The notes: generated from the sequence alone by a model not told the origin. A DNA stretch of 64,000 nt from Patescibacteria group bacterium (GCA_026004595.1 BPJL01000006.1:12299-76298), one strand, 5' to 3'. Counted from the stretch's first letter, positions 6,171-63,048 are shown. Numbers and translations: made by a program.

Positions 6171-9170
6171 TTGGTCATGGAAAACACCTCGCTTACACAT
6201 ATTTTGGTCAGGGGCGCCCGCCAACATAATCTGAAGAATATAGATTTGGATATCCCAAAAAATAAGATGGTTGTCTTTACGGGAGTTTCGGGATCGGGGA
6301 AGTCCTCTTTAGCTATGGATACAATTTACGCCGAGGGGCAGAGGCGTTACGTTGAAAGTTTGTCGGCCTACGCTCGTCAGTTTTTGGGCGTTATGGACAA
6401 GCCTGATGTGGACAAAATAGAAGGACTTTCACCAGCAATAGCAATAGATCAGAAAACGACTTCAAAAAATCCAAGATCTACGGTTGGTACTATTACCGAG
6501 ATTTATGATTATCTTAGGCTTCTTTATGCTCGAATAGGACACCCCCACTGTCCTCAATGTGGAAGGGAGATACAAAGACAGAGTTCAACCGAGATTGCCC
6601 AGACAATCTTGGATTTGATCTCCGGTTACAAAGATTTTAAATCAGAGAAGGGGACGAGGTTTTTTATTTATTCCCCGATTGTTAGAGATAGAAAGGGAGA
6701 ATATTCTGCTCTTTTTGAAAATCTCAGGAAGCAGGGAGTGCTTCGCGCTAGAGTGGATGGCGAAGTTATGAGCTTAAAGGAAAAATTTGATTTGATAAAG
6801 ACCAACAAGCATACGATCGATGCTTTAATCTCAAGACATTCGGTAAATTCTAAAAAAATGGCTGACAGCGGCGAGGCTAAGAGTGTTTTTTCAGAGATTT
6901 TTCAATCGGTTGAAACCGCTCTTCGACTTAGCGGCGGAACAGTTATATTAAGCGTGATAAAGGGGAGCTCTTTTGATTTTCCTGAAAACCCTAAAGACAC
7001 CGAAGACCACCTTCTTTCCGAGAACTTCGCGTGCCCGGTTTGCAACATATCTCTTCCGGAGATTGAGCCCAGGACATTTTCTTTTAACTCACCGCACGGC
7101 GCATGCCCAGCTTGTGACGGTCTCGGGATGCAGTTAAAGGTTAATGAGGGCGCTGTTGTAAATCCCAGGCTTTCTATATCTGAGGGTGGAATTCTACCTT
7201 GGCAGAAACTTTTTGAGCATCAAACCTGGACGCAGAATGTGATAAAAAAAGTGGCTGAAGTTTATAATTTTTCTCTTGATAAACCCATAAAAGATTTGTC
7301 GGAAGAGGCGCGCAGAATAATAATGTACGGAGCCGGGGACAAAAGATTTCGAGTAACTTACAGAGGACAGAGTGGCCACGAGCATACATACGAGGCCGGG
7401 TACGAAGGTGTTGTTCCCAACTTAATGAGAAGGCATAGAGAAACCCAATCCGAATATATAAGAAATGAGATAGAGAAGTATATGGTGAACGAGGATTGTC
7501 CCGTATGCAAGGGGTCGCGCCTTAAAAAGGAATCTTTATCCATAGTGGTTGACTCAAAACCCATAACTGAAATCACAGAGGCGTCAATAAAGGAAAACAT
7601 TGAATGGATAAAAAAGCTTGATAAGGTACTTAATGAAAGGGAGCACAAAATAGCTGAAGGAATTCTCAAAGAAATAACTTACCGCCTCAACTTTCTAAAG
7701 GATGTCGGTTTGGATTATTTGACATTAGCCCGTTCCTCATCTCAACTATCAGGCGGAGAAGCTCAAAGGATAAGGTTAGCGTCCCAGATAGGTTCAGGTT
7801 TGTCGGGGGTATTGTACGTTTTAGACGAACCCTCAATAGGTTTGCATCAAAAGGATCAAGCAAAACTTATACGAACCCTGCACCAGCTCAGGGATTTAGG
7901 TAATACTGTGTTAGTTGTTGAGCATGACGCTGAAACAATGCTGGAAAGTGACTACATTTTTGATTTTGGACCTGGGGCAGGAGCAAATGGGGGTAAGGTT
8001 GTCGCGGAGGGAGCTCCTGAAGAGGTTATGAAAAATCCCAATTCTTTGACGGCAAAATATCTCTCCAAAAAACTGATAGTTGGAAAAAACGTAAAGAAAG
8101 ATCATGCGAAAGGCGAGATGTTTATGAATTTAGACTCTGTTTCTAAACCGGAAAAGTCGATGGAAGGAAAGAAGTTGATACTAAGAGGGGCGACAGGAAG
8201 GAATCTGAAAAACATAGATTTGACCATTCCTTTGGGAAAGTTTGTCTGTGTGACGGGGGTTTCGGGATCGGGAAAGTCGACATTAATAATGGATACTTTA
8301 TACCAAGCCCTGCGCCAAAGTTTCGGGTTAAAGCTTGAGCAAAGGCCCGAACCGTTCAGGGAGATAGAAGGGGCAGAGAATATTACGAACATAATCGCGA
8401 TAGACCAGAGTCCAATCGGAAGAACCCCAAAGTCGAATCCTGCAACGTATACCAAAGTGTTTGATCACATACGCGAACTTTTTTCACAAACCCAGGAAGC
8501 CAGAGTAAGGGGCTACGGACCAGGACGATTTAGTTTCAATGTGAAGGGTGGAAGGTGTGAGGCCTGTGGGGGAGAGGGCCAAATTAAGATAGAGATGCAG
8601 TTTATGCCCGATGTTTATGTTAATTGTGAAGTTTGCCAAGGAAAGAGGTATAACAGAGAGGCTCTTGAAATTTACTACAAAGGTAAAAATATCGCAGATG
8701 TTTTGGATATGACGGTTGAAGAGGGGATGACATTTTTTGAAAATGTTCCTCAAATTCGAAGACGAATAGAAACCTTGTACGATGTTGGGTTAGGCTACAT
8801 TAAACTTGGTCAGCCGGCTCCAACCTTGTCGGGAGGAGAGGCTCAGAGAGTGAAGCTGGCTTTAGAACTATCCAAGAGGGCAACCGGAAGCACATTTTAT
8901 ATTCTAGATGAACCCACAACAGGGCTGCACTTTGCCGATTTGGAAAATCTAATCACAATCTTCAGAAGGCTTACCTCCAGAGGGAATACAGTTGTAGTTA
9001 TAGAGCACAATTTGGATGTTATAAGCAATTGTGACTACGTTATTGATATGGGTCCAGAAGGGGGAGAAGACGGCGGAAGAATTATTTTTCATGGAACTTT
9101 AGATGAGCTAAAAAATCACAAAACATCTTATACGGCCGAGGCGTTAAGAGGGTATTACAAGAACCGGTAG
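6171..9170 (+). CDS. uvrA: Excinuclease ABC subunit A
   Basis: Two ABC ATPase modules (GVSGSGKSSLA, GVSGSGKSTL), LSGGE signature motifs, CxxC zinc fingers (CPVC, CEAC, CEVC). Confidence 0.95.
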   Translation: MVMENTSLTHILVRGARQHNLKNIDLDIPKNKMVVFTGVSGSGKSSLAMDTIYAEGQRRYVESLSAYARQFLGVMDKPDVDKIEGLSPAIAIDQKTTSKNPRSTVGTITEIYDYLRLLYARIGHPHCPQCGREIQRQSSTEIAQTILDLISGYKDFKSEKGTRFFIYSPIVRDRKGEYSALFENLRKQGVLRARVDGEVMSLKEKFDLIKTNKHTIDALISRHSVNSKKMADSGEAKSVFSEIFQSVETALRLSGGTVILSVIKGSSFDFPENPKDTEDHLLSENFACPVCNISLPEIEPRTFSFNSPHGACPACDGLGMQLKVNEGAVVNPRLSISEGGILPWQKLFEHQTWTQNVIKKVAEVYNFSLDKPIKDLSEEARRIIMYGAGDKRFRVTYRGQSGHEHTYEAGYEGVVPNLMRRHRETQSEYIRNEIEKYMVNEDCPVCKGSRLKKESLSIVVDSKPITEITEASIKENIEWIKKLDKVLNEREHKIAEGILKEITYRLNFLKDVGLDYLTLARSSSQLSGGEAQRIRLASQIGSGLSGVLYVLDEPSIGLHQKDQAKLIRTLHQLRDLGNTVLVVEHDAETMLESDYIFDFGPGAGANGGKVVAEGAPEEVMKNPNSLTAKYLSKKLIVGKNVKKDHAKGEMFMNLDSVSKPEKSMEGKKLILRGATGRNLKNIDLTIPLGKFVCVTGVSGSGKSTLIMDTLYQALRQSFGLKLEQRPEPFREIEGAENITNIIAIDQSPIGRTPKSNPATYTKVFDHIRELFSQTQEARVRGYGPGRFSFNVKGGRCEACGGEGQIKIEMQFMPDVYVNCEVCQGKRYNREALEIYYKGKNIADVLDMTVEEGMTFFENVPQIRRRIETLYDVGLGYIKLGQPAPTLSGGEAQRVKLALELSKRATGSTFYILDEPTTGLHFADLENLITIFRRLTSRGNTVVVIEHNLDVISNCDYVIDMGPEGGEDGGRIIFHGTLDELKNHKTSYTAEALRGYYKNR

Positions 9171-12735: not shown

Positions 12736-12951
12736 ATGGCAATACTAAAGACAAGTCAAATAATAATCAGCATCCTTTTAGTTATTCTAATATTAATACA
12801 AACAAAAAATGCGGGATTGGCATCTGGGCTAAAAAACTCTTTTACGACCTACAGATCGCTGAGGGGAGTAGAGAAAGCGGTTTTTATTCTTACTGCGATA
12901 CTAGGTGTCGTTCTCGTAGTAAATTCCTTTCTGCTAATAACACTATCTTAA
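12736..12951 (+). CDS. secG: Preprotein translocase subunit SecG (probable)
   Basis: 71 aa, two TM helices, SecG-like LVILILIQTKNAGLASGL ... TYRSLRGVEKAVFILTAILGVVLVVNSFLL. Confidence 0.55.
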   Translation: MAILKTSQIIISILLVILILIQTKNAGLASGLKNSFTTYRSLRGVEKAVFILTAILGVVLVVNSFLLITLS

Positions 12952-39753: not shown

Positions 39754-41512
39754 ATGAATGAGAACCGCATCTCCAACAAGGAAGTCGTAGCTCAGCTTAA
39801 AGAGGTGCTTGCGGCCATGGATGTGAAGAATTTTAATGTTTTTAAGGTTCGAGCGTATCAAAATGCGATAGCTATACTAGATAACTTAACGGTTTCAATT
39901 TATGACCTTTGGGAAAACGGCCGACTCAAAGAAATTCCCGGTGTGGGGTCTGGTATATATTCACACCTTGATGAGTTGTTTAAAACAGGGTCGGTTAAAG
40001 AGTTTGAAGCCATAAAAAAAGGCCTTCCAGAAGGGATGTTCGGCCTTATTGGAATACGAGGAATAGGTGCGAGAAAGGCTTTCAAGTTGGCCACTGCTTT
40101 TAAACTTAACGATAGGAATACGGCTGTAGAAAAAGTAAAAGAGCACGCAGAAAAAGGAGACATTCAAAAACTTGAGGGGTTTGGTGAAAAATCCGAGGCC
40201 GATATTCTTGAGGCGATAGCGCAGTTTAAGATGACGAAGAATGAGAAACAGCGCGTCTTGTATTCAAAAGCCGAGGAAACAGTAGAAAGAATTTACACTT
40301 ATATGAAAAAGCTGGATTGTGTAGATGAAATAGAAGCTGCGGGTTCTTTTAGAAGGAAAAATGCAACTATAGGAGATCTTGATATTCCTATTGCAACAAA
40401 TGAACCGGAGAAAGCAATAGATCATTTTTTGATGTTTCCAGAGATTGATGAGGTTCTTGTGAAGGGAGATAAAAAGTGCAGCGTGGTTCTCAAAAATGAT
40501 TTGCAGGTTGATATAAGAGTTTCTACCCCCCAGGCCTACGGTGCCATGTTGCAGTATTTTACTGGTTCCAAACAGCATAACATCCTTCTTAGAAACTTTG
40601 CGCTCGCAAAGAATATGTCGTTGTCCGAGTATGGGATCAAAAAAGGCGGCGATACATACGAGTTTTCAGACGAACCGTCTTTTTATAAATTTTTGGGGCT
40701 TCCTTACATAGAACCTGAACTAAGAAACGGATCAAACGAAATAGAAGCGGCGTTAGAAAATAAACTTCCGAAGTTGATTGAAATTGGAGATATAAGGGGC
40801 GAAGTCCATACTCACACTACTGATTCTGACGGAGTTAATTCTTTGGACGAGATGGTTGCAGCGGCAATATCTTTGGGGGTACCAGTATTTGGGTATTTCC
40901 GATCACGCGCCAAGCGTTACCTCACGTGGGTATAGAGAAGTATCAGAGATAATTAAGAAGAAAAGAGAAGCTATCCAAAAAATAAATGAAAAGCAGGATT
41001 CTATCAAAGTATTCTTCGGTTATGAGGTGAACATCTTGGCAGACGCAACCCTTGGCCTACCTGACGAAATACTGGCAGAATTGGACTATGTAGTGGCTTC
41101 GATTCACACTTCCTTCAATCAAGACAGAGAGCAGATTACCGACCGACTGCTTGCGGCAATAGAGAATCCATATGTAAATATTATCGGACATCCTTCGGGG
41201 CGTCTGCTAAACGAAAGAGACCCGATAGATCCTGCTTGGGACAAGATATTTTTGGCGGCTCGAGATAATGGCAAAATACTGGAGATAAACGCCCAACCCG
41301 ACCGTCTTGATCTTCCAGACGATTTGGTGAAAGAAGCAATACAATGGGGAGTTAAGTTAGTGATAAGTACTGATGCTCATTCAGTAGATCAGTTTTCTTT
41401 TATGAAATATGGTATTTTCAACGCACGCAGAGGGTGGGCGGAGAATAAAAATATAATCAACACGTTGCCGTATGGAGATTTTGTAAAAGAAGCGAACATA
41501 CGCCTTAAGTGA
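39754..41512 (+). pseudogene. DNA polymerase X family (Pol-beta-like nucleotidyltransferase plus PHP phosphoesterase), interrupted by a +1 frameshift in G5 run 40875-40879 (pieces 39754-40935 and 40856-41512)
   Basis: Piece 1 has HhH motifs, the Pol-beta NT motif GSFRRKNATIGDLDI and PHP motif I (GEVHTHTTDSDG). Piece 2 in the +1 frame continues PHP (YQYLGISDHAPS ... ASIHTSF ... STDAHS). Removing one G restores ...AAAISLG-YQYLGISDH... Confidence 0.8.
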
Positions 41513-55642: not shown

Positions 55643-56078
55643 AGCTTACCAATTTTACCGCAGTATTGCTTTTGCATAAAGTTTATTTGAGCAAAATCAA
55701 AACTAGTGGTTATGAGCTTTTTTAATCAAACTTGGTTTTTACCTCTAAATTTGGTGGTACTGCTGGAAAAATTTTATTTGGTATCAGGATTGTAGGCGAA
55801 GATGGTAATTTTATAGTTGTGGTTGCAGCCTTCTTCCGGATGACCGCAGGGTACGCAGCTTCAGCTGGGTTTTTTATGCTAGGCTATCGTTGGGTTTTCA
55901 GAAAAAAAGGAAAATCTTATATGGTATGATAGGTTGTTTGCCACCAAGGCTTAAAGCATAGAAAGCCCTTTTTGGGAAATTTTGTTTCTGTTTTTATATA
56001 GCTTCAGTTTTGCAGCTTCCTTATCTATATACATATTTACTGTAATTAGATTTTTGTATTAAAAACCCTTTTTGATAT

Positions 56079-56106
56079 TGACAAATCAATCCTTAATGAT
56101 TAAATT
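56079..56106 (+). promoter_or_regulatory. Candidate sigma-70-like promoter (TTGACA-17-TAAATT)
   Basis: TTGACA at 56079-56084, 17-nt spacer, TAAATT at 56101-56106, in AT-rich DNA about 300 nt upstream of the 56407 gene. Confidence 0.3.
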
Positions 56107-56406
56107 ACTCTACTTATAGGTTAGGGGAGTACAAGATATAGACTTATAGTAATGTGTGCGTTTGAGTGTTGTTGCTACACACAATCGGAGATTCATATAA
56201 ACTTTGTTCTAGTGTTTTTGCCCTTCTGCCGAAAAGATATTTCATAACAGATTTGGGAGTTTTTTTCAGCCTTCGGAGAGTATGTACTAAAATATATGGG
56301 TCCTTGGTATTTGCATGAGGTTGTGTGCGGAGTGTTTTTGTTTGAAAGTATTCCGGGCACAGGCTCAATAAAGCCAACCTAAATAAATATTGAAAGGAGA
56401 GCTGTT

Positions 56407-56706
56407 ATGGTCAAGAGCCACGTCAGCCGGGATCCGGGTATATTTGAGCTGATAAACAGAAACCTGCGATTGGTGCTTAAGTTGTTAAAGGACAAACGTG
56501 TTCCTTTTCTTCTTAAGCTTTTACCAATAATAGGTGGAGTGTGGCTAATTTACCCCGACCTTATCCCGGGACCGCTGGACGATGTTTTGGTTATCTACCT
56601 CACGTTTTATGGTTTCATTGAACTGGCTCCGGATGAAGTTGTAAAAGAACTTCGTAAGGAAGTTAGTCATGGAAAGGAAAACGTGATAGAAGGCGACATC
56701 GACTAG
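56407..56706 (+). CDS. DUF1232 (YkvA-like) membrane protein
   Basis: RVPFLLKLLPIIGGVWLIYPDLIPGPLDDVLVIYLTFYG matches the DUF1232 core; RBS GAAAGGAG. Confidence 0.55.
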   Translation: MVKSHVSRDPGIFELINRNLRLVLKLLKDKRVPFLLKLLPIIGGVWLIYPDLIPGPLDDVLVIYLTFYGFIELAPDEVVKELRKEVSHGKENVIEGDID

Positions 56707-56750: not shown

Positions 56751-56818
56751 GTATCCTTAGGAATTTTGGATCTTGATCATTTTGTTTGTCCGTCCCGGCC
56801 ACTTGCGCCGTGCGGATG

Positions 56819-56929
56819 TACTTTGAAAACACAACAAGAAAGAGGTGGTTGCCCTACTTAGGTTTGCACCTTCGAGACTTTCAGCATGCTGGAAGTTTTG
56901 CAGGTGCGTAGCCTAATAAGAGGCAGCCA
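56819..56929 (+). promoter_or_regulatory. Repeated leader element, copy 1 (box A, box B, hairpin, box C)
   Basis: Box A 56819-56842, box B GGTTGCCCTACTTAGGTTTGCACC, hairpin GCACCT (56866-56871) / AGGTGC (56902-56907), box C GGTGCGTAGCCTAATAAGAGGCAGC. Same architecture as copy 3. Confidence 0.55.
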
Positions 56930-57023: not shown

Positions 57024-57281
57024 ATGCAAACGTTAGTTAGCAACATAATTTTTTTGAGTGTGCTGGTATTCGCAGCAGCTTTGGTGATCTTTGGATTGCT
57101 GAAGTTCATCAAGGTACTTAAAGGAGAGCTCTCTGTAGGTGAGGCTCTGATGGCCATAGGCGGTGTGGTAATCGGTGCAGCAGTTGTAATATGGGCTGCG
57201 ACCGATTTCAACGGGAGCAGGATCATAATCGATACGGTTGGAAAGTGGATCATCCAGATTCTAACCGAGCCCCTAGGCTAG
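57024..57281 (+). CDS. Small 2-TM protein (VirB2/TrbC pilin-like topology)
   Basis: 86 aa from the ATG after RBS AACGGAGG: hydrophobic leader (IIFLSVLVFAAALVIFGLL), charged loop, second hydrophobic segment (ALMAIGGVVIGAAVVIWAA). Listed ORF begins at 56985. Confidence 0.5.
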   Translation: MQTLVSNIIFLSVLVFAAALVIFGLLKFIKVLKGELSVGEALMAIGGVVIGAAVVIWAATDFNGSRIIIDTVGKWIIQILTEPLG

Positions 57282-57288
57282 GTTAGCT

Positions 57289-58869
57289 ATGAAGACAGCT
57301 GCTGTTCCAACAATCCTGGTGGGCGCTCTTCTGCTTACTGGATGTGCGGAAAAACCGGATAATCTGGAGGTGTTTTTTGATTGGCGGCAAAAATTCTTTT
57401 TGCATGTTGATCAACAGACGGTAGAGCCTTGGGTAGGGCCGGTTTTAAGGCTAGCGGTAGCAGTAGCCTTAGTTCTTTGCTTACTGGTGTTGATACACAA
57501 CCTGAAAAGTGAAAGGCCTATCTGGGGTTATAATTTCATCACAGGTCTCTCAATTTTTGTAGCGATCGCTTTAGTGTATTTTTACATCCCCGCAGCTACA
57601 GCTTTTGGTGAGGCCATAATGCCCCCAGAATTAACGCTTGATAGGGTTTTTTCAGCTCTAAGGTTAGGGTTGGACGGAGGTTTGGCTGACTTGCTTGTAG
57701 GAGGCTGGGCTATAACCTTTACACTCGTTCTCCCGCTCTTTTCGGCTTTTTGGGAAATAATGATGTTGTTGGGTGCCGTTGTTGCTCTAATAGCAACAAC
57801 TTTAGCAAGAAGCATGAAAGGTATCGTTTACATTGTAACGCAGGTGTATGGATGGGGATCTTTCCTTGTTCTTTACAACACCTTAATATCGTTGATCGAC
57901 CGTTACTATCCTACATGGGATTATATGCCTGTAAAGATATTTGTAACGGCGTTCTATGTAATGGTATCTGTCACATTGCTTCTTTTTTGCTACATTGGAA
58001 TACCCTTCTTTGCAATCTCCCTCGTGCCGAGATCAGATGACGAATACAAATCATCTGGAAAGAAAAGGGAGGAAAGAATACGGGACTCCAAAGTGGATTG
58101 GGGGACTATTTTTGCTCCCATACCCATACCCAACGACTCGCCGGACGATGAGCCTGATCAAGATCGATACCATAGTAACGACAATTACGATGATGAGGAT
58201 CCTTCAGATGGTAGTATAAATCCCCAACTACCCCGGGGTCCGAGTGGTGGTGGATTGGGAGAGGTTATCGAAGCACATAAAGGAGATATCCCACCGACTA
58301 AAGTTTCTCGTTCGGAAACTTCGGAAACTAGTAATGGCGATGAACCTGATCCCAATAAAATACTTTTATCGAAAAGTTCGAGATTGGGTTCCAACATTGA
58401 ACACAAAGATTCCAGAGTTTCCGAAGAGGTTGTTGATTCTGTTGAGAACTTCCCTTCGAGTAAAGTTAAACAATTAAAAAGCTTGGAGAGTGGTTCCCGA
58501 TCTGCGGAAACAAGTCGTCCTAACCGGAACAATGGAGATTCCAACCGCCTGGAAATAGATGTCAAAAAAGACAAGCTAAAGAAAGATAAGGCCCACGTAG
58601 AATTTCTGGACAAAACCGGCAAAGTTTTGGAGGTCGTGGGTGTTGTTACCGCATCTCCTAAAGTCGTAATTTTCGGCAAGGGTGTTGAGTTAGCAGCCGA
58701 TGTGTTGGACCGTGCTACGGAAGAAGGTGCAGATACAAAGAAGGTTTTGGATCATTCTGCCAAAGAAGTAGCCAAACGGGTTTTGCGAAACAAATACCCA
58801 GACTTGGTAGAATTTGCAGTCGGCAAGGACGATCGGGACGAAAACAAGCTTAACATGGAAGGAGGGTAG
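57289..58869 (+). CDS. Polytopic membrane lipoprotein with long acidic/Ser-rich disordered C-terminal domain (VirB6-like architecture)
   Basis: Lipobox LLLTGC, about 6 TM helices, then ~270 aa low-complexity D/E/S/K/P-rich tail. Confidence 0.6.
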   Translation: MKTAAVPTILVGALLLTGCAEKPDNLEVFFDWRQKFFLHVDQQTVEPWVGPVLRLAVAVALVLCLLVLIHNLKSERPIWGYNFITGLSIFVAIALVYFYIPAATAFGEAIMPPELTLDRVFSALRLGLDGGLADLLVGGWAITFTLVLPLFSAFWEIMMLLGAVVALIATTLARSMKGIVYIVTQVYGWGSFLVLYNTLISLIDRYYPTWDYMPVKIFVTAFYVMVSVTLLLFCYIGIPFFAISLVPRSDDEYKSSGKKREERIRDSKVDWGTIFAPIPIPNDSPDDEPDQDRYHSNDNYDDEDPSDGSINPQLPRGPSGGGLGEVIEAHKGDIPPTKVSRSETSETSNGDEPDPNKILLSKSSRLGSNIEHKDSRVSEEVVDSVENFPSSKVKQLKSLESGSRSAETSRPNRNNGDSNRLEIDVKKDKLKKDKAHVEFLDKTGKVLEVVGVVTASPKVVIFGKGVELAADVLDRATEEGADTKKVLDHSAKEVAKRVLRNKYPDLVEFAVGKDDRDENKLNMEGG

Positions 58870-58870
58870 T

Positions 58871-59182
58871 ATGAGTCCCTTTTCCTTTCTTGGTGACAGT
58901 AAGATGAGATCGATCAGATATAAACTGTTCGATCATTCTTACACTATCCTGCCGGTTTGGGGTGTGATCGGAATCTTATTTGTTTCCGGTCTGTTTCTTT
59001 ATTTCGGCGGGCTCCGTTGGGTATGCCATGGTACTTCGGGAATAGTTTTTGTTTGGGTAGTTTTCACTCTGCTCAATAAAGTCCTGAAAGCTCGGGCATA
59101 CAAAAAAATCAGCGAAAAGAGCAGACGTGACCAATCCGAGGTAGTTGTTACCTACCTTTCGGATCCCCCGTACCGCTCCTAG
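58871..59182 (+). CDS. Small 2-TM membrane protein (VirB3-like size and topology), immediately upstream of the ATPase
   Basis: 103 aa from the ATG after RBS GGAGGG; helices ILPVWGVIGILFVSGLFLYFGGL and GIVFVWVVFTLL; basic C-terminus. Listed ORF begins at 58814. Confidence 0.5.
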   Translation: MSPFSFLGDSKMRSIRYKLFDHSYTILPVWGVIGILFVSGLFLYFGGLRWVCHGTSGIVFVWVVFTLLNKVLKARAYKKISEKSRRDQSEVVVTYLSDPPYRS

Positions 59183-59191
59183 AAACTTGAA

Positions 59192-59227
59192 AGGATAGGG
59201 TTTTTCCCCAACCCTATCCTTTTCTCT
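59192..59227 (+). terminator. Rho-independent terminator
   Basis: AGGATAGGGTT (59192-59202) pairs with AACCCTATCCT (59210-59220), followed by TTTCTCTC. Confidence 0.6.
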
Positions 59228-59349
59228 CTTTCTTGTTGTGGCTCTTTTTGAGTTTTCAATATATTTGATTATTCAAAAAGAGGGTACGAGAAACAAATAA
59301 TTTGCAAAAACATCATAGATGTTGGCACTTTGAAAACACAACAAGAAAG
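59225..59349 (+). promoter_or_regulatory. Repeated leader element, copy 2 (partial: 16-mer TCTCTTTCTTGTTGTG plus box A only)
   Basis: 16-mer at 59225-59240, identical to 62821-62836. Box A ACTTTGAAAACACAACAAGAAAG at 59327-59349, identical to copy 1. Confidence 0.5.
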
Positions 59350-59476
59350 CTAAGAAGAGATTATGTTTTTGTTGAGCAGGGCACCTAAAAGAGCCTGAAC
59401 ACTGTCGGGTTCTTTTGGGTGTCATGCTCAATCAGGGCTTGAACATAATAACTAAATCAATAAGAAAGGAGTTGAG

Positions 59477-61417
59477 ATGGATCTGAAAAAACTTTTATTT
59501 CCGGGAACAGATGCAAGATTGTTACCTGAATCCTCCGTGTTTTTAAACGCGGTAACCAGGGAAGAGACAATTAGTGCTCGAGAGCTCCTTGGTGTGACGA
59601 TCCACCCCGTAAAGGGAGGTGCTGCTGGTGTCAGAAGTACGAATGGAGGTGCTACGCGTGTAATCGCATATCACCAAAGCTCTAAATTCACCGATGGCAG
59701 CGGTTTGGATATACGGCAGGCTTACAAGTACACTTCTAACTTAACAATGTTGCTTAGGCTGGTTAAGCACTACCCCGCCTCTTTTGTAAGGCATGTTCAG
59801 AACGAAAAGGATGGTGAAAAAACAGCCCGTACCGAATTTCTCGATGATGTCATGGAGTGGGCACTTCCTCGGAAAGGAAAGATTAGCGGTCATGATCTGT
59901 TACTTTGGGGAGATTTAGGAGCAATCATTCCCGAAAATAGGGAAGAGACGGCATCGTTACATGGAAAGATTGTTTCTTATCTTCAAGCCGCGTCTGTACT
60001 TCGGAGTGTAATTTTAAGTACCCCAATGTCTCTGGAAGATGCAAAGTACGACTTGATCACAAAAAGCTATGATGCAGTTTGGTATGCTGCACCCAGAAAA
60101 GTGTTTTGGTACCCTGATTTTTATTCGCTACCGGACTCTAATTTGGCATACGCTTTTTGGAGTGGTGTGGTATCTCCTGAGAATATCCGTGAACTAATGG
60201 ATATGGGAGATATACTGCTCTACACGGAGGTGGTCGAGGGTTATCTTTACGCGACCGCTATACTTCGTGTGGTAGTGCCGATTAGAAACGGAACTGCTGA
60301 CTTTTCCTCTGAAACCTCCCAGCTGATGAAACTGGGCAAATGGGAGAGGCGGACAGGTGCGGATCTGAAAAAAGCATTTCAGGCCTTTGTTCCAGGAAGT
60401 GCACCACCTCCGGCATGGGACAGGCACTCAGTACACAAGCCGAACTACGTTCTGTCGGCCATTCAAAAGTCTCTAAAGAATGTTGGGGATAAGAACGGAG
60501 ATACTATGAGCGGTTTCATAGATGACGAGCCGTTCTTTCTCAACAACCAGCTTCGTCCCAGTCGTATCTACTTAGGGCCCAGCAAAGTGGGAAAGTCTAC
60601 CCTTGCTGCAGCACACGTTTTGCAAACCAATGGCTGTAGGGTCATATGGATGCCACTGACAGCGGGTCAATTTGAATCCGCACCCCATTGGGTAGAAAGA
60701 TTCGAAGGAACTGTAATAAACTTAAATCTTCCGGATGCATATACACTTCATAGACAAAACGATAAGCAAAACGGAACCAGGCCTACACGTGTCGATATGG
60801 TGGCCAAACAAGAGGAGTTGCACGTTGAGGACAAAGAAGCGGCCGAAAAGACAGTAGCAAAGCTGGAGGCTGAGTGGTATCAGCGGGGTAAGATTGTAGG
60901 GTTGCCGCTTACGTTTCGTGTTAAGTCAGGCGACACTGTACGATTGCTGAACTGGTACAACCATTTCTTAACTGCTATGAGGGAGGCCTGGAAAAGGTGG
61001 TACGAGCTTACCGGAGAACTTGCCACCATCGTTGCAGACAATTTCAGTGCGTTGAAATTATCGGACAACGACCCCTTGTTAGGTGAATTGCCTGCGGCAA
61101 TAGGGGAGAATCTAGGACTAAACCTAGCTTGGTTGGTATCTAACGGTCGAAATATTGGCCTTTCATGCTGGATTACGACTCATAGCAAGGAAGATCTTGA
61201 TCATATAAGCACCGGCCTATTCAACCAGTTTGGATTGTGCTTCAACCTCAAACACAATGATTTCACTTTTTGTGAGGTCAGCCAGCCGAAAGATCGAGAT
61301 GTTTTGGTACCAAAGCTCTATATAAAGCTTCCTTATCCCATCAAACGCGTTGTTGAAAGACGCGAGCCGAACCTGGATGAACTGCCGTGGACGCAAAAAG
61401 AAGTTTCCGCGGACTGA
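59477..61417 (+). CDS. FtsK/HerA/VirB4-like P-loop NTPase (divergent)
   Basis: Walker A GPSKVGKST (60575-60601), then CRVIWMPLTAGQFE (the hhhhD-x-x-GE-Y spacing seen in VirB4/HerA/FtsK ATPases). Walker B-like TIVADNF (DN not DE) and arginine-finger/TQ-like LSCWITTHS. No TM; RBS AAAGGAG. Confidence 0.6.
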   Translation: MDLKKLLFPGTDARLLPESSVFLNAVTREETISARELLGVTIHPVKGGAAGVRSTNGGATRVIAYHQSSKFTDGSGLDIRQAYKYTSNLTMLLRLVKHYPASFVRHVQNEKDGEKTARTEFLDDVMEWALPRKGKISGHDLLLWGDLGAIIPENREETASLHGKIVSYLQAASVLRSVILSTPMSLEDAKYDLITKSYDAVWYAAPRKVFWYPDFYSLPDSNLAYAFWSGVVSPENIRELMDMGDILLYTEVVEGYLYATAILRVVVPIRNGTADFSSETSQLMKLGKWERRTGADLKKAFQAFVPGSAPPPAWDRHSVHKPNYVLSAIQKSLKNVGDKNGDTMSGFIDDEPFFLNNQLRPSRIYLGPSKVGKSTLAAAHVLQTNGCRVIWMPLTAGQFESAPHWVERFEGTVINLNLPDAYTLHRQNDKQNGTRPTRVDMVAKQEELHVEDKEAAEKTVAKLEAEWYQRGKIVGLPLTFRVKSGDTVRLLNWYNHFLTAMREAWKRWYELTGELATIVADNFSALKLSDNDPLLGELPAAIGENLGLNLAWLVSNGRNIGLSCWITTHSKEDLDHISTGLFNQFGLCFNLKHNDFTFCEVSQPKDRDVLVPKLYIKLPYPIKRVVERREPNLDELPWTQKEVSAD

Positions 61418-62767
61418 TAGGGTGTGCCATTATCCCCGGCATCCCAATAATGCTTGTGATCTGCTTATTAAGTCTGATCCTAGCATTGGGATACATGCAC
61501 GATACAGACCCTAAGGCATACAACGAATACATCGGAGATGTCTTGGGTCTGTCCGGGGGGACTTGGTACACCCTCACACCGGACGATGAAGAGCTAATTC
61601 TGGAACTGGGATTTGATCCGGCGGTTGTAGCCAACGAAATTATGGCCAACCGCTGGATCAATGAAAATGGCGGAGAGATAGACCTTGGTATTCAGTTGGC
61701 CATTTTGGAAGGAGAGTCCAAGGCGGGAAAAAACATGGGAACATGCAACGGATTACTTTCCGCTGCGAAATTTTCAAGGCAGGAGGTAGAAGCAGCAGAG
61801 TGGTTGTTAAGACGCTGGAGCGCAGCCGGAATACGAGACTGGTCAGAAATTGCACGGAAAATGGTTACGCCTGACTACAGTGACTACACAGCACACTGTT
61901 CAGCCGGCGAGATAGGACCTAACGGTATTCTTCCGTCGACAGGTGTCACTATATGTAAGTATGGGCTTTCAGAGCACCCTAACCCATTGGTGCGTTCCTG
62001 CAATTTTTTTGATGAAAGGGTTGCGCCTTATGGAAAAAATTGGTGGTTAAAAGCTATCGGATACAAATCCACAGCTTCAAAATCCGATAATTTTGAAGCT
62101 CTGTACGGTTGGAACCATAGCGAGTTCTATAGGACACAGTTGCTCGAAAAAGCTGATTATTACAATAGTTTTTTTCGACAATTGGAAAGGGAATCCACAG
62201 GAAAACGAAATATATGTTTTCAAAGGAACATTGTTGCAAAGTATCGCAGTCAAATTCCTGAAATATGTCGGTCTTCTGTCGGCAGAGGTTTACGCTGCGG
62301 GTCCTGACGAGGGCGCTGGAGAAGCCTTGCCCATTGATGGTTTCGTCCACCCTTACCCCGGGGGTTTTCTTTGTGGATATGGTTTCGGAGTCCCTGTTGC
62401 GAATGGTATTCACTGGGGGGTAGACCTGTGTTTTGGTTCTCCTTGGAAATCCGCTCCCATCTACGCGATGCACTCCGGTAAAGTTGCCTTTGCAAGGTAT
62501 CTTTCCCCCAGCGAACCATTAGCGGGACAATGGTGGATTTCCGGAAATGTAATCGTGATTGAAGGAAAAGATGCTTCCGGAAATACAATCTGGACAGCTT
62601 ACGGCCACGGCCTTAACGGTAGTATGGAAGTTGAGGTCGGAGATGTTGTAGAGAAAGGCCAGAAGATCATGATGTCGGGGTCAACAGGCTTTTCTTCGGG
62701 TATTCACCTTCACCTGGCTATGAAAGTTAACGGTCGGTGGGTGAACCCCGCAACATACCTAAAATAA
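61387..62767 (+). pseudogene. Membrane-anchored bifunctional peptidoglycan hydrolase (SLT-like lytic transglycosylase plus M23 peptidase), interrupted by a +1 frameshift (pieces 61387-62307 and 62093-62767; probable site T7 run 62169-62175)
   Basis: Piece 1: TM (IIPGIPIMLVICLLSLILALGY), SLT-like ILEGESKAGKNMGTCNGLL (Glu-Ser catalytic pair). Piece 2 (+1 frame): M23 motifs HWGVD, YGHG, GIHLHLAM. Confidence 0.7.
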
Positions 62768-62948
62768 GGGCGATTGATGAAAGCAGATTTTTCTCTTTCC
62801 AGTCGCCCTATCTCTAAATTTCTCTTTCTTGTTGTGTAAGCGCAAGGATTTATATTTTATGAATTTTTACGCTTCGGTTTCAGATAGATTTTTTTTGGAA
62901 CCGCTATAAATACAAACTGCCCCCTGCTTTATTAATAAGGAGAAAGGC

Positions 62949-63048
62949 ACTTTGAGAACAAAACAAGATAGATAGGTTGCCTTTAGGTACGTACCCGCAA
63001 GGCTTTTACTAGAAGTTTTACGGGTGCGTAGCCTAATAATAGGCAGCT
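62949..63048 (+). promoter_or_regulatory. Repeated leader element, copy 3 (box A variant, box B, hairpin with compensatory changes, box C)
   Basis: Box A ACTTTGAGAACAAAACAAGATAG at 62949-62971, box B GGTTGCCTTTAGGTACGTACC, hairpin GTACCCG (62991-62997) / CGGGTGC (63021-63027), box C GGTGCGTAGCCTAATAATAGGCAGC. Confidence 0.55.

Follow-up and report, generated by a model that had tools for sequence, protein, structure and literature searches.

A reused 16-mer in the spacers of a Patescibacteria gene cluster as putative trailer strand of long-range mRNA leader-trailer helices

The 16-nt sequence TCTCTTTCTTGTTGTG occurs identically at 59225-59240 and 62821-62836, both times on the + strand, of a 64,000-nt stretch of DNA from a Patescibacteria group bacterium (GCA_026004595.1 BPJL01000006.1:12299-76298), referred to here as the window. 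The source organism is a tiny-genome, WWE3-like bacterium of the candidate phyla radiation (CPR), and the 16-mer lies in spacers of a conserved gene cluster adjoining hisS, whose blocks are separated by three such spacers. With moderate confidence, we propose that the 16-mer is the trailer strand of a long-range leader-trailer helix in mRNA, a protein-coding variant of the leader-trailer/boxA system of ribosomal RNA (rRNA). Its reverse complement, CACAACAAGAAAG, stands directly after the boxA-like element GCACTTTGAAAAC in the preceding spacer, a relation that the preliminary description of this locus had missed, and in all of the about ten lineages compared the post-boxA strand of spacer n can pair with the 16-mer strand of spacer n+1 and so enclose a gene block of 2.4-3.5 kb: in the window, 2.4 kb for helix A (56830-56845 with 59225-59240) and 3.5 kb for helix B (59336-59349 with 62824-62837). 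The order of elements (small hairpin, boxA, helix strand and, after the unit, the complementary strand, the whole being repeated) is that of rRNA operons, and it is this likeness that leads us to read the 16-mer as a trailer strand. The argument is built on conservation, complementarity, partner-specific covariation, elements that keep their order and orientation throughout, and a hammerhead ribozyme core in a relative; from these we infer that the strands would pair as RNA, that NusB/NusE may bind the boxA-like element, and that cleavage and a physiological purpose would be attached to the helix.

Allowing up to two mismatches, the 16-mer has four sites in the window versus 0.12 expected, and none of 100 shuffled sequences reached four, which bears out the earlier view that its recurrence is not due to chance. 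The two further sites are reverse complements (56830-56845 with one mismatch, 59337-59352 with two), and no other copy is present in the 64 kb. A repeat finder recovered a 29-nt direct repeat, GGCACTTTGAAAACACAACAAGAAAG, in three copies at 56817, 59324 and 62946; linking the 16-mers to these copies it also reported inverted matches, all of them perfect, so that the 16-mer can be described as the complement of the sequence directly 3′ of the boxA-like element. Outside the three spacers, the window contains neither the exact repeat nor its reverse complement.

Comparisons were made with syntenic loci (L-numbered below) from about ten WWE3-type CPR lineages whose VirB4-like proteins are 33-56% identical. 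Their spacers share a common anatomy. After the stop codon comes a hairpin, then the trailer strand CTTTCTTGTTGTG, the long hairpin H1, a small hairpin and a boxA-like element; the leader strand CACAACAAGAAAG(AGA) begins 0-2 nt after the latter and is followed by the very long hairpin H3, a small hairpin with a Shine-Dalgarno (SD)-like loop, and the ribosome-binding site (RBS). The consensus G(C/T)AC(T/A/C)TT(G/A)A(A/C)AA is found in every spacer 1-3 of all relatives, and the 13-nt helix cores are nearly invariant while the surrounding spacer sequence has diverged. The TCT that extends identity between the two copies to 16 nt is specific to this genome; 5′ flanks of the second copy in relatives differ (AAACTTTC, TAACTTTCC, CTGCTTTC), leaving CTTTCTTGTTGTG as the conserved core. 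In spacer 3, boxA is kept and the leader strand is lost in L002, L006/L040, L007, L011, L037, L041 and L043, the exceptions being L005 and L012; L005 has both an intact spacer-3 leader and a spacer-4 trailer strand, which are missing together from the other genomes compared except L012.

Part of the preliminary description's reading survives this comparison. The spacers are indeed built from a reused module, running from hairpin through 16-mer, hairpin(s), boxA and long hairpin to RBS, and the two spacers that open with the 16-mer do hold boxA further on (59325-59337 and 62947-59), in the boxA-like form GCACTTTGA(A/G)AAC; a third copy at 56818-56830, in the spacer ahead of the first gene block, was absent from its list. 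The statement that the 16-mer follows two terminators holds for copy 1, which abuts a terminator-like hairpin whose T-tract (59189-59223 hairpin) runs into the 16-mer. It does not hold for copy 2, which starts 12 nt after a hairpin (62767-62809) that has no T-tract and is therefore not a canonical terminator, although its homologue in L047 does have a T-run. In L005, L006, L007 and L043 the counterpart of the copy-1 hairpin, a homologous GGATAG hairpin, is located approximately 30-130 nt 5′ of the trailer strand, with no adjacent T-tract.

A scan of GTDB for boxA plus leader strand returned six candidate division WWE3 loci, all in this gene cluster, and 17 other matches, isolated and in unrelated taxa, with the module absent in the six whose flanks were read. 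In viral contigs, searches with the leader pattern and with an L012-type junction of trailer strand and hammerhead gave only chance matches that had neither boxA nor a partner arm. These results bear on the suggestion that the repeat is fortuitous, or a low-complexity CT-rich sequence of no function, which we regard as vanishingly improbable. The 16-mer is indeed pyrimidine-rich, and a shorter A-rich pattern has many chance matches in large collections, but matches elsewhere come without boxA and a partner arm, the shuffles do not reach the observed count, the sequence is conserved at four or five fixed positions in lineages as diverged as those above, and the arms covary. A chance repeat is effectively refuted by the shuffle counts, conservation and covariation taken together. 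Nor is the 16-mer part of a CT-rich genomic background, the condition under which the preliminary description would have given up its interpretation: these are its sole copies in 64 kb, and among WWE3 genomes in GTDB the boxA-leader pattern occurs only at this cluster.

A trailer strand has two potential partners, the leader of the previous spacer across the gene block (distal) and the leader of its own spacer, about 100 nt away (local). In the second case, which we consider unlikely, the 16-mer would close a stem-loop holding H1, the small hairpin and boxA, which could be an RNase III site, an excised spacer RNA, or a switch concealing boxA. A 13-bp local complement does exist in every spacer 2, the stem is predicted by RNAalifold when spacer 2 is analyzed alone, and in window spacer 2 its energy equals that of the distal duplex (-26.0 vs -24.7 kcal/mol). 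Elsewhere the comparison favors the distal partner. Ungapped helices measure 14-20 bp for distal and 7-14 bp for local pairing, the exception being spacer 3 of L005 (local 19, distal 17 bp), and duplex energies in main-group loci are -22 to -32 kcal/mol versus -15 to -26 kcal/mol, with the local stem reaching only -15.3 kcal/mol in L006, L037 and L041; block B of L012 gives -18.6 kcal/mol for either. In the window, helix A consists of 16 contiguous pairs including one terminal G.U (-24.7 kcal/mol), and copy 2 pairs at -25.8 kcal/mol distally (helix B) versus -17.5 kcal/mol with its own spacer. Spacer 1 has a leader strand and no local trailer strand, and spacer 3 keeps its trailer strand intact next to a degenerate local leader, leaving the distal duplex as the only stable one in seven of seven genomes (-22 to -27 vs -5.6 to -18 kcal/mol).

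Covariation points in the same direction. Across 19 gene blocks, aligned from related sequences with arms located by pattern, 86.1% of cells are paired in the distal model, as compared with 43-60% after shifting the partner by 1-3 columns and 77% for the local stem, whose flanking pairs are mostly broken (at the first flank position, 9 of 11 are unpaired). Eight of 19 pairs change on both sides, the covariation score is 0.186 versus 0.081 in shuffles, and neither this value nor the percentage paired was reached in any of 500 shuffles. Where both sides have changed, the compensation is with the distal partner: L006 has CACAGCAUG in spacer 2 and the complementary CUUGCUGUG in spacer 3, at a position where the close relatives L037 and L041 keep A:U, and L007 likewise combines CAACAGGAAAG in spacer 2 with CUUUCCUGUUG in spacer 3. 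Neither genome shows a change in the spacer-2 trailer strand or in its spacer-1 partner. In favor of the local stem, the L006 and L007 changes would still allow local pairing as G.U. Block A has A:U as the pair adjoining the core, block B has U:A, and block C of L005 has G:C (column 18/35: AU 8, UA 6, GC 1, UG 1). Each gene block thus has its own helix flanks.

Complementarity of this kind could also be written into DNA. The inverted repeats at the block boundaries are perfect, recombination or gene conversion between them would also keep partners matched, a -35-like TTGACA/TTGAAA lies inside boxA, and complementarity alone cannot separate DNA from RNA: with four G.U and two A.C combinations, G.U barely exceeds A.C within the helix, and the pairing itself is no proof of RNA. 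On these grounds, the repeats might act as protein-binding sites (an operator, an insulator or a promoter module), or as crossover sites at which a site-specific invertase flips whole blocks. We regard such a DNA-level element as quite improbable, and if the pairing were only a DNA repeat, the finding would be of local interest. A transcription factor would impose one consensus on all sites and not partner-wise matches, and would leave the block-specific flanks unexplained. A recombinase is encoded upstream in the L006/RAAC2 lineage alone, none being conserved across the loci, and the blocks have the same orientation in all of the approximately 15 loci. Three lineages tolerate a T.T mismatch at the center of the helix, a C-to-T (in RNA, C-to-U) change in L043 gives G.U within the helix, and L012 has a hammerhead at the same position. 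The arms also keep one orientation with respect to the transcribed strand, and the + strand hairpins around them covary and contain many G.U pairs. Together with the absence of a conserved recombinase and of any inverted block, this context points to RNA.

The promoter or insulator role put forward in the preliminary description is not supported either. A sigma-70 scan of the locus found 14 matches versus 13.7 expected in shuffles, and the spacers contain no conserved -35/-10 pair at 16-18 nt: in five genomes, the candidate -35-like hexamer TT(G/C/T)AAA is separated from the candidate -10 by 18, 26, 15, 11 and 11 nt, so that no -10 is conserved at fixed spacing. A consensus promoter is found only upstream of the whole cluster, at 56078-56106, and TTGACA-17-TAAAT(T/A/G) is also found at the start of spacer 1 in L002, L006 and L008. 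The 56078-56106 promoter is likely the single start of a long transcript.

The most telling pointer to RNA comes from L012 and L013, the most distant relatives, with helix arms CAACAGGAAAG/CUUUCCUGUUG. Type III hammerhead cores occur in two successive spacers of L012, at 9043-9127 and approximately 12796-12880 of that locus, in nearly identical form, and also in L013; in each of the two spacers the trailer strand is followed at 6 nt by the GUC cleavage site. The L012 hammerhead is complete, with a CUGAUGA...GAAA core, G10.1-C11.1 and A15.1-U16.1 pairs, an NUH cleavage site and three stems, and aligns to the full RF00008 (Hammerhead_3) model of Rfam with 29.4 bits (E 6.3e-5 in a 116-nt search). 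This score is below the gathering value of 48.5 bits, for which a 37-nt stem II insertion is probably responsible; stem I is also short, and the element goes unreported in larger Rfam searches of relatives, which list tRNAs only. Its placement points to RNA processing at the trailer strand. The L012 trailer strand can alternatively pair with the sequence just 3′ of the ribozyme, and this minimum-energy fold of the nearest-neighbor model (-29.5 kcal/mol) is more stable than the hammerhead-compatible one (-21.6 kcal/mol). Since the trailer strand competes with hammerhead stem III in this way, leader-trailer pairing might switch the ribozyme on. In the window and in the other relatives Rfam has no ribozyme match, and hairpin H1 occupies the hammerhead position. 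Hammerheads are known to flank genes or short gene blocks in polycistronic RNAs of prophages (Perreault et al. 2011, PMC3088659), and as with these, the cores in successive spacers of L012 and L013 would cut the transcript into block-sized mRNAs. The L012/L013 locus differs from these examples in lying outside a prophage, in having the ribozyme right next to a strand of a long-range helix, and in that a conserved plain hairpin takes the ribozyme's place in the window and most relatives. The apparent swap of hairpin and hammerhead at one junction is an uncommon clue from nature as to the site at which a bacterial hammerhead acts and the reason for it.

The closest parallel to the arrangement is the rRNA operon, in which boxB, boxA and boxC follow one another, the leader-trailer helix includes boxC, and boxA bound by NusB/NusE has been proposed to hold the strand at the RNA exit channel (PMC10250234); rRNA leader-trailer helices have been reported in all phyla, bacterial and archaeal (PMC11404451). 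As in rRNA operons, complementary strands flank a multi-kb unit of one transcript, leader 5′ and trailer 3′, the leader strand lies just 3′ of boxA with a small hairpin 5′ of it, and the module is repeated ahead of each successive unit, as for 16S and 23S; the highly conserved leader strand nevertheless covaries, as it does in rRNA (PMC10250234, PMC11404451). The hairpin directly 5′ of boxA varies in sequence (window, L002, L006, L007, L008, L012), and the leader strand follows boxA after 0-2 nt, compared with 18-19 nt between boxA and boxC in Enterobacteriaceae. The enclosed units here are protein-coding secretion genes with their own RBSs, and the purpose cannot be ribosome assembly. Against the boxA consensus GYTCTTTAANA, which is gamma-proteobacterial and known to drift between phyla (PMC7665894), L006 GCACTTTAACA matches at 10 of 11 positions and window GCACTTTGAAA at 9 of 11.

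BoxA is also known outside rRNA, where it protects long untranslated RNA from Rho (PMC7665894) and precedes some protein-coding genes that have no long-range helices (PMC5725501). Lambda nut sites, the suhB leader and the leaders of CRISPR arrays share with our locus a boxA-like motif ahead of long or poorly translated stretches (PMC5725501, PMC7665894); they have a single boxA and no long-range helix, whereas each internal spacer of the present cluster has its own boxA, joined to a helix strand. Structured RNA between cistrons segments the transcript, and pairing of mRNA ends controls stability, in two other systems that the present one resembles. In phage T7 early mRNA, RNase III sites between genes are local hairpins, and in hok mRNA fold-back pairing of 5′ and 3′ ends spans approximately 400 nt of one small mRNA with no boxA. 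In contrast to our locus, neither brackets multi-gene blocks with repeated modules. The rrn leader of Bacillus subtilis reads CTTTGAAAACTAAACAAGAC and pairs with the 16S-23S spacer; a literature string search for a Gram-positive-type boxA came back empty and did not confirm this.

Several observations weigh against a leader-trailer helix of this kind. The arrangement is not universal: in L047, with a 55% identical VirB4-like C-terminus, the hydrolase gene ends in a canonical intrinsic terminator (1940-2090, GGGGGCGAC...GCCGCCC plus a T-run), followed by an AT-rich spacer with neither trailer strand nor boxA, so the module can give way to ordinary transcription units. L012 has a spacer-3 leader strand with no downstream partner, helix B of the L006, L037 and L041 lineages has a central U.U mismatch, and position 3 of boxA is A in every copy, at variance with the gamma-proteobacterial consensus. 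Helices of 14-20 contiguous bp are shorter than the 25-40 bp of Enterobacteriaceae rRNA and marginal for a classical RNase III substrate, extensions beyond internal loops being possible. Parity of the two duplexes in window spacer 2 and the near balance of G.U and A.C belong here too, and the local stem may form transiently in spacer 2 as a competitor of the distal helix. The patterns used to locate the arms were written after the first variants had been seen, which entails some ascertainment bias, and co-transcription, pairing and cleavage as set out below are predictions from sequence.

The model for leader-trailer pairing postulates that one promoter (56078-56106) gives rise to a long polycistronic RNA. 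In each untranslated spacer of 250-480 nt, the small hairpin and boxA would re-arm RNA polymerase with a Nus-type antitermination complex, which would take it past terminator-like hairpins and across untranslated RNA that is prone to Rho. BoxA binding may, in the manner proposed for rRNA, keep the leader strand near the RNA exit channel, allowing it to pair with the trailer that emerges kilobases later. The closed helix and the abutting H1 could then form a processing site, cut by a host double-strand RNase in most lineages and by the hammerhead in the L012 lineage. Cleavage would yield block-sized mRNAs with paired ends, and hence differing stability and stoichiometry of secretion-system parts. 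More tentatively, it is possible that a CPR bacterium with a reduced genome co-opted the logic of rRNA maturation for mRNA, boxA-tethered leaders looping out gene blocks and the helix licensing cleavage at an adjacent H1 or hammerhead that are evolutionarily interchangeable.

In the literature we found no description of such bracketing for protein-coding operons, and if the proposal is true, this would be the first rRNA-style leader-trailer processing of such operons. Leader-trailer helices and the boxA tether have so far been treated as specific to rRNA, and a protein-coding counterpart would show their generality. A helix with no role in ribosome assembly would be a natural system that helps in telling apart what the Nus complex does in antitermination and what it does as an RNA chaperone. 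The protein-coding counterpart would also explain how the stoichiometry of a type IV secretion system might be set in a CPR bacterium with very few regulators. Coordinates of the elements and genes are given in Table 1.

Table 1. Elements and genes of the cluster in window coordinates (energies in kcal/mol)
Feature	Position	Strand	Details
Sigma-70-like promoter, TTGACA-17-TAAATT	56078..56106	+	consensus, 10/12 matches; upstream of whole cluster
boxA-like, spacer 1, GTACTTTGAAAAC	56818..56830	+	motif match, conserved in relatives
Putative leader (5′) strand, helix A, CACAACAAGAAAGAGG	56830..56845	+	partner 59225-59240; inverted repeat, covariation
H3 equivalent, spacer 1	56866-56907		fold of 56860-56926
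Gene block A, inside helix A	57024..59182	+	85-aa, 526-aa and 103-aa membrane protein
Terminator-like hairpin after block A	59189..59223	+	14 bp, -19.2, z -5.6
16-mer copy 1, putative trailer (3′) strand, helix A	59225..59240	+	complementarity, covariation
Hairpin H1 abutting trailer strand, GCUCUUUUUGAG...UUCAAAAAGAGG	59241..59283	+	-18.2, z -6.6
Small hairpin 5′ of boxA, boxB-like position	59309..59323	+	15 nt, -3.9, z -3.0
boxA-like, spacer 2, GCACTTTGAAAAC	59325..59337	+	motif match
Putative leader strand, helix B, ACACAACAAGAAAG	59336..59349	+	pairs with 62824-62837; 14 nt, 100% complementary
Hairpin H3, 5′ untranslated region of block B	59371..59432	+	near-perfect 27 bp, -42.3, z -8.1; covariation
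SD-like hairpin GCUCAAUCAGGGC	59426-59438	+	after H3, followed by RBS
Gene block B, inside helix B	59477..62767	+	VirB4-like ATPase and VirB1-like cell-wall hydrolase
VirB4-like ATPase	59477-61417	+	646-aa P-loop protein
VirB1-like hydrolase	61387-62307 and 62093-62767	+	M23 domain (Pfam); frameshift-split
Hairpin after hydrolase gene	62767..62809	+	-23.7, z -5.9; no T-tract
16-mer copy 2, putative trailer strand, helix B	62821..62837	+	pairing part 62824-62837
Two hairpins directly after trailer strand B	62838..62903	+	-22.2, z -4.8
boxA-like, spacer 3, GCACTTTGAGAAC, with degenerate leader strand AAAACAAGATAGATA	62947..62974	+
H3 equivalent, spacer 3	~62988-63030		fold of 62985-63046

Folding of the + strand is dense throughout the spacers, with z values from -4.8 to -8.1 (-3.0 for the 15-nt hairpin at the boxB-like position), many G.U pairs and covarying local hairpins. 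H1 is conserved, with covariation in its upper part. Its 5′ side (window 59241-59252, GCTCTTTTTGAG; GCTCTTTTTAA in relatives) resembles the E. coli boxA GYTCTTTAANA plus two T; this side is base-paired and missing from spacer 3, and was therefore not treated as boxA. The boxB-like position is occupied by a hairpin of unrelated sequence in L002, L006, L007, L008 and L012, and the spacer-3 trailer strand is followed by a long imperfect hairpin in all relatives. Searches against Rfam, of the whole window at the gathering threshold and of the locus and both spacers at permissive E values, gave between them only tRNAs and meaningless microRNA-like hairpin matches; the window yielded no known riboswitch, leader or ribozyme.

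The hairpins of the 5′ untranslated regions, between leader strand and RBS, have stems that covary across genomes and are long enough to be substrates of a double-strand RNase. Small hairpins of the form GC(C/U)(C/U)-AAU(A/C)A(G/A/U)-(A/G)G(G/C)C are present at 56363-56376, 56911-56924, 59426-59438 and 63031-63044. Their 3′ side and loop are SD-like, and they lie approximately 15-100 nt 5′ of the RBS of every gene block, and also ahead of a 99-aa open reading frame (ORF) before spacer 1 and in the ATPase spacer (spacer 4) of relatives. They could be standby or decoy ribosome sites, or protein-binding hairpins. The 99-aa ORF itself (56407-56706), for which Pfam has no family, is situated between the promoter of the cluster and spacer 1 and is also present in L007 and L035; L002, L006 and L008 have a non-coding leader of approximately 300 nt in its place.

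The genes enclosed by the helices look like those of a secretion system. Sequence searches of Pfam and the PDB returned nothing significant for the 646-aa VirB4-like protein, but the top Foldseek match of its AlphaFold (AF2) model (pLDDT, the predicted local distance difference test score, 73.7) is TrwK/VirB4 (7o42_A, E 9.6e-11). On the basis of this fold match, the cluster looks like the monoderm-type type IV secretion system of Patescibacteria/CPR (PMC12102498), a system without which, as the same study reported, another CPR bacterium cannot grow epibiotically (PMC12102498). By position and comparison with the same study, the block A proteins, for which Pfam has no matches, may correspond to VirB2/VirB6/VirB3-like components, and a membrane protein gene follows block B. 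The VirB4-like family comprises only eight protein clusters in a set of 5.8 billion proteins, and a profile search and a second query for homologues added nothing new. In all relatives one ORF of 459-465 aa encodes the hydrolase, with its lytic domain and M23 peptidase; in the window it is divided into overlapping frames of 306 and 224 aa. The frameshift lies near a T7 run at approximately 62167-62180, and the split could be a sequencing slip at the homopolymer, a pseudogene or programmed slippage.

Other genes assigned by Pfam in the window are housekeeping genes (uvrABC, PBP, gatAB, polA, ClpB-like, L19). The window contains no gene for a Nus factor, Rho or RNase III, and no rRNA was found in it or in any relative locus scanned. 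A PolX-like polymerase is present as two overlapping ORFs, one with HHH_8 and DNA_pol_B_thumb domains (39754-40935) and one with a PHP domain (40856-41512), which may represent a frameshift or a split gene. Ribosomal protein L19 (51479-52009) has an acidic, E/D/K-rich N-terminal extension of approximately 68 aa before the Pfam L19 domain (residues 69-173).

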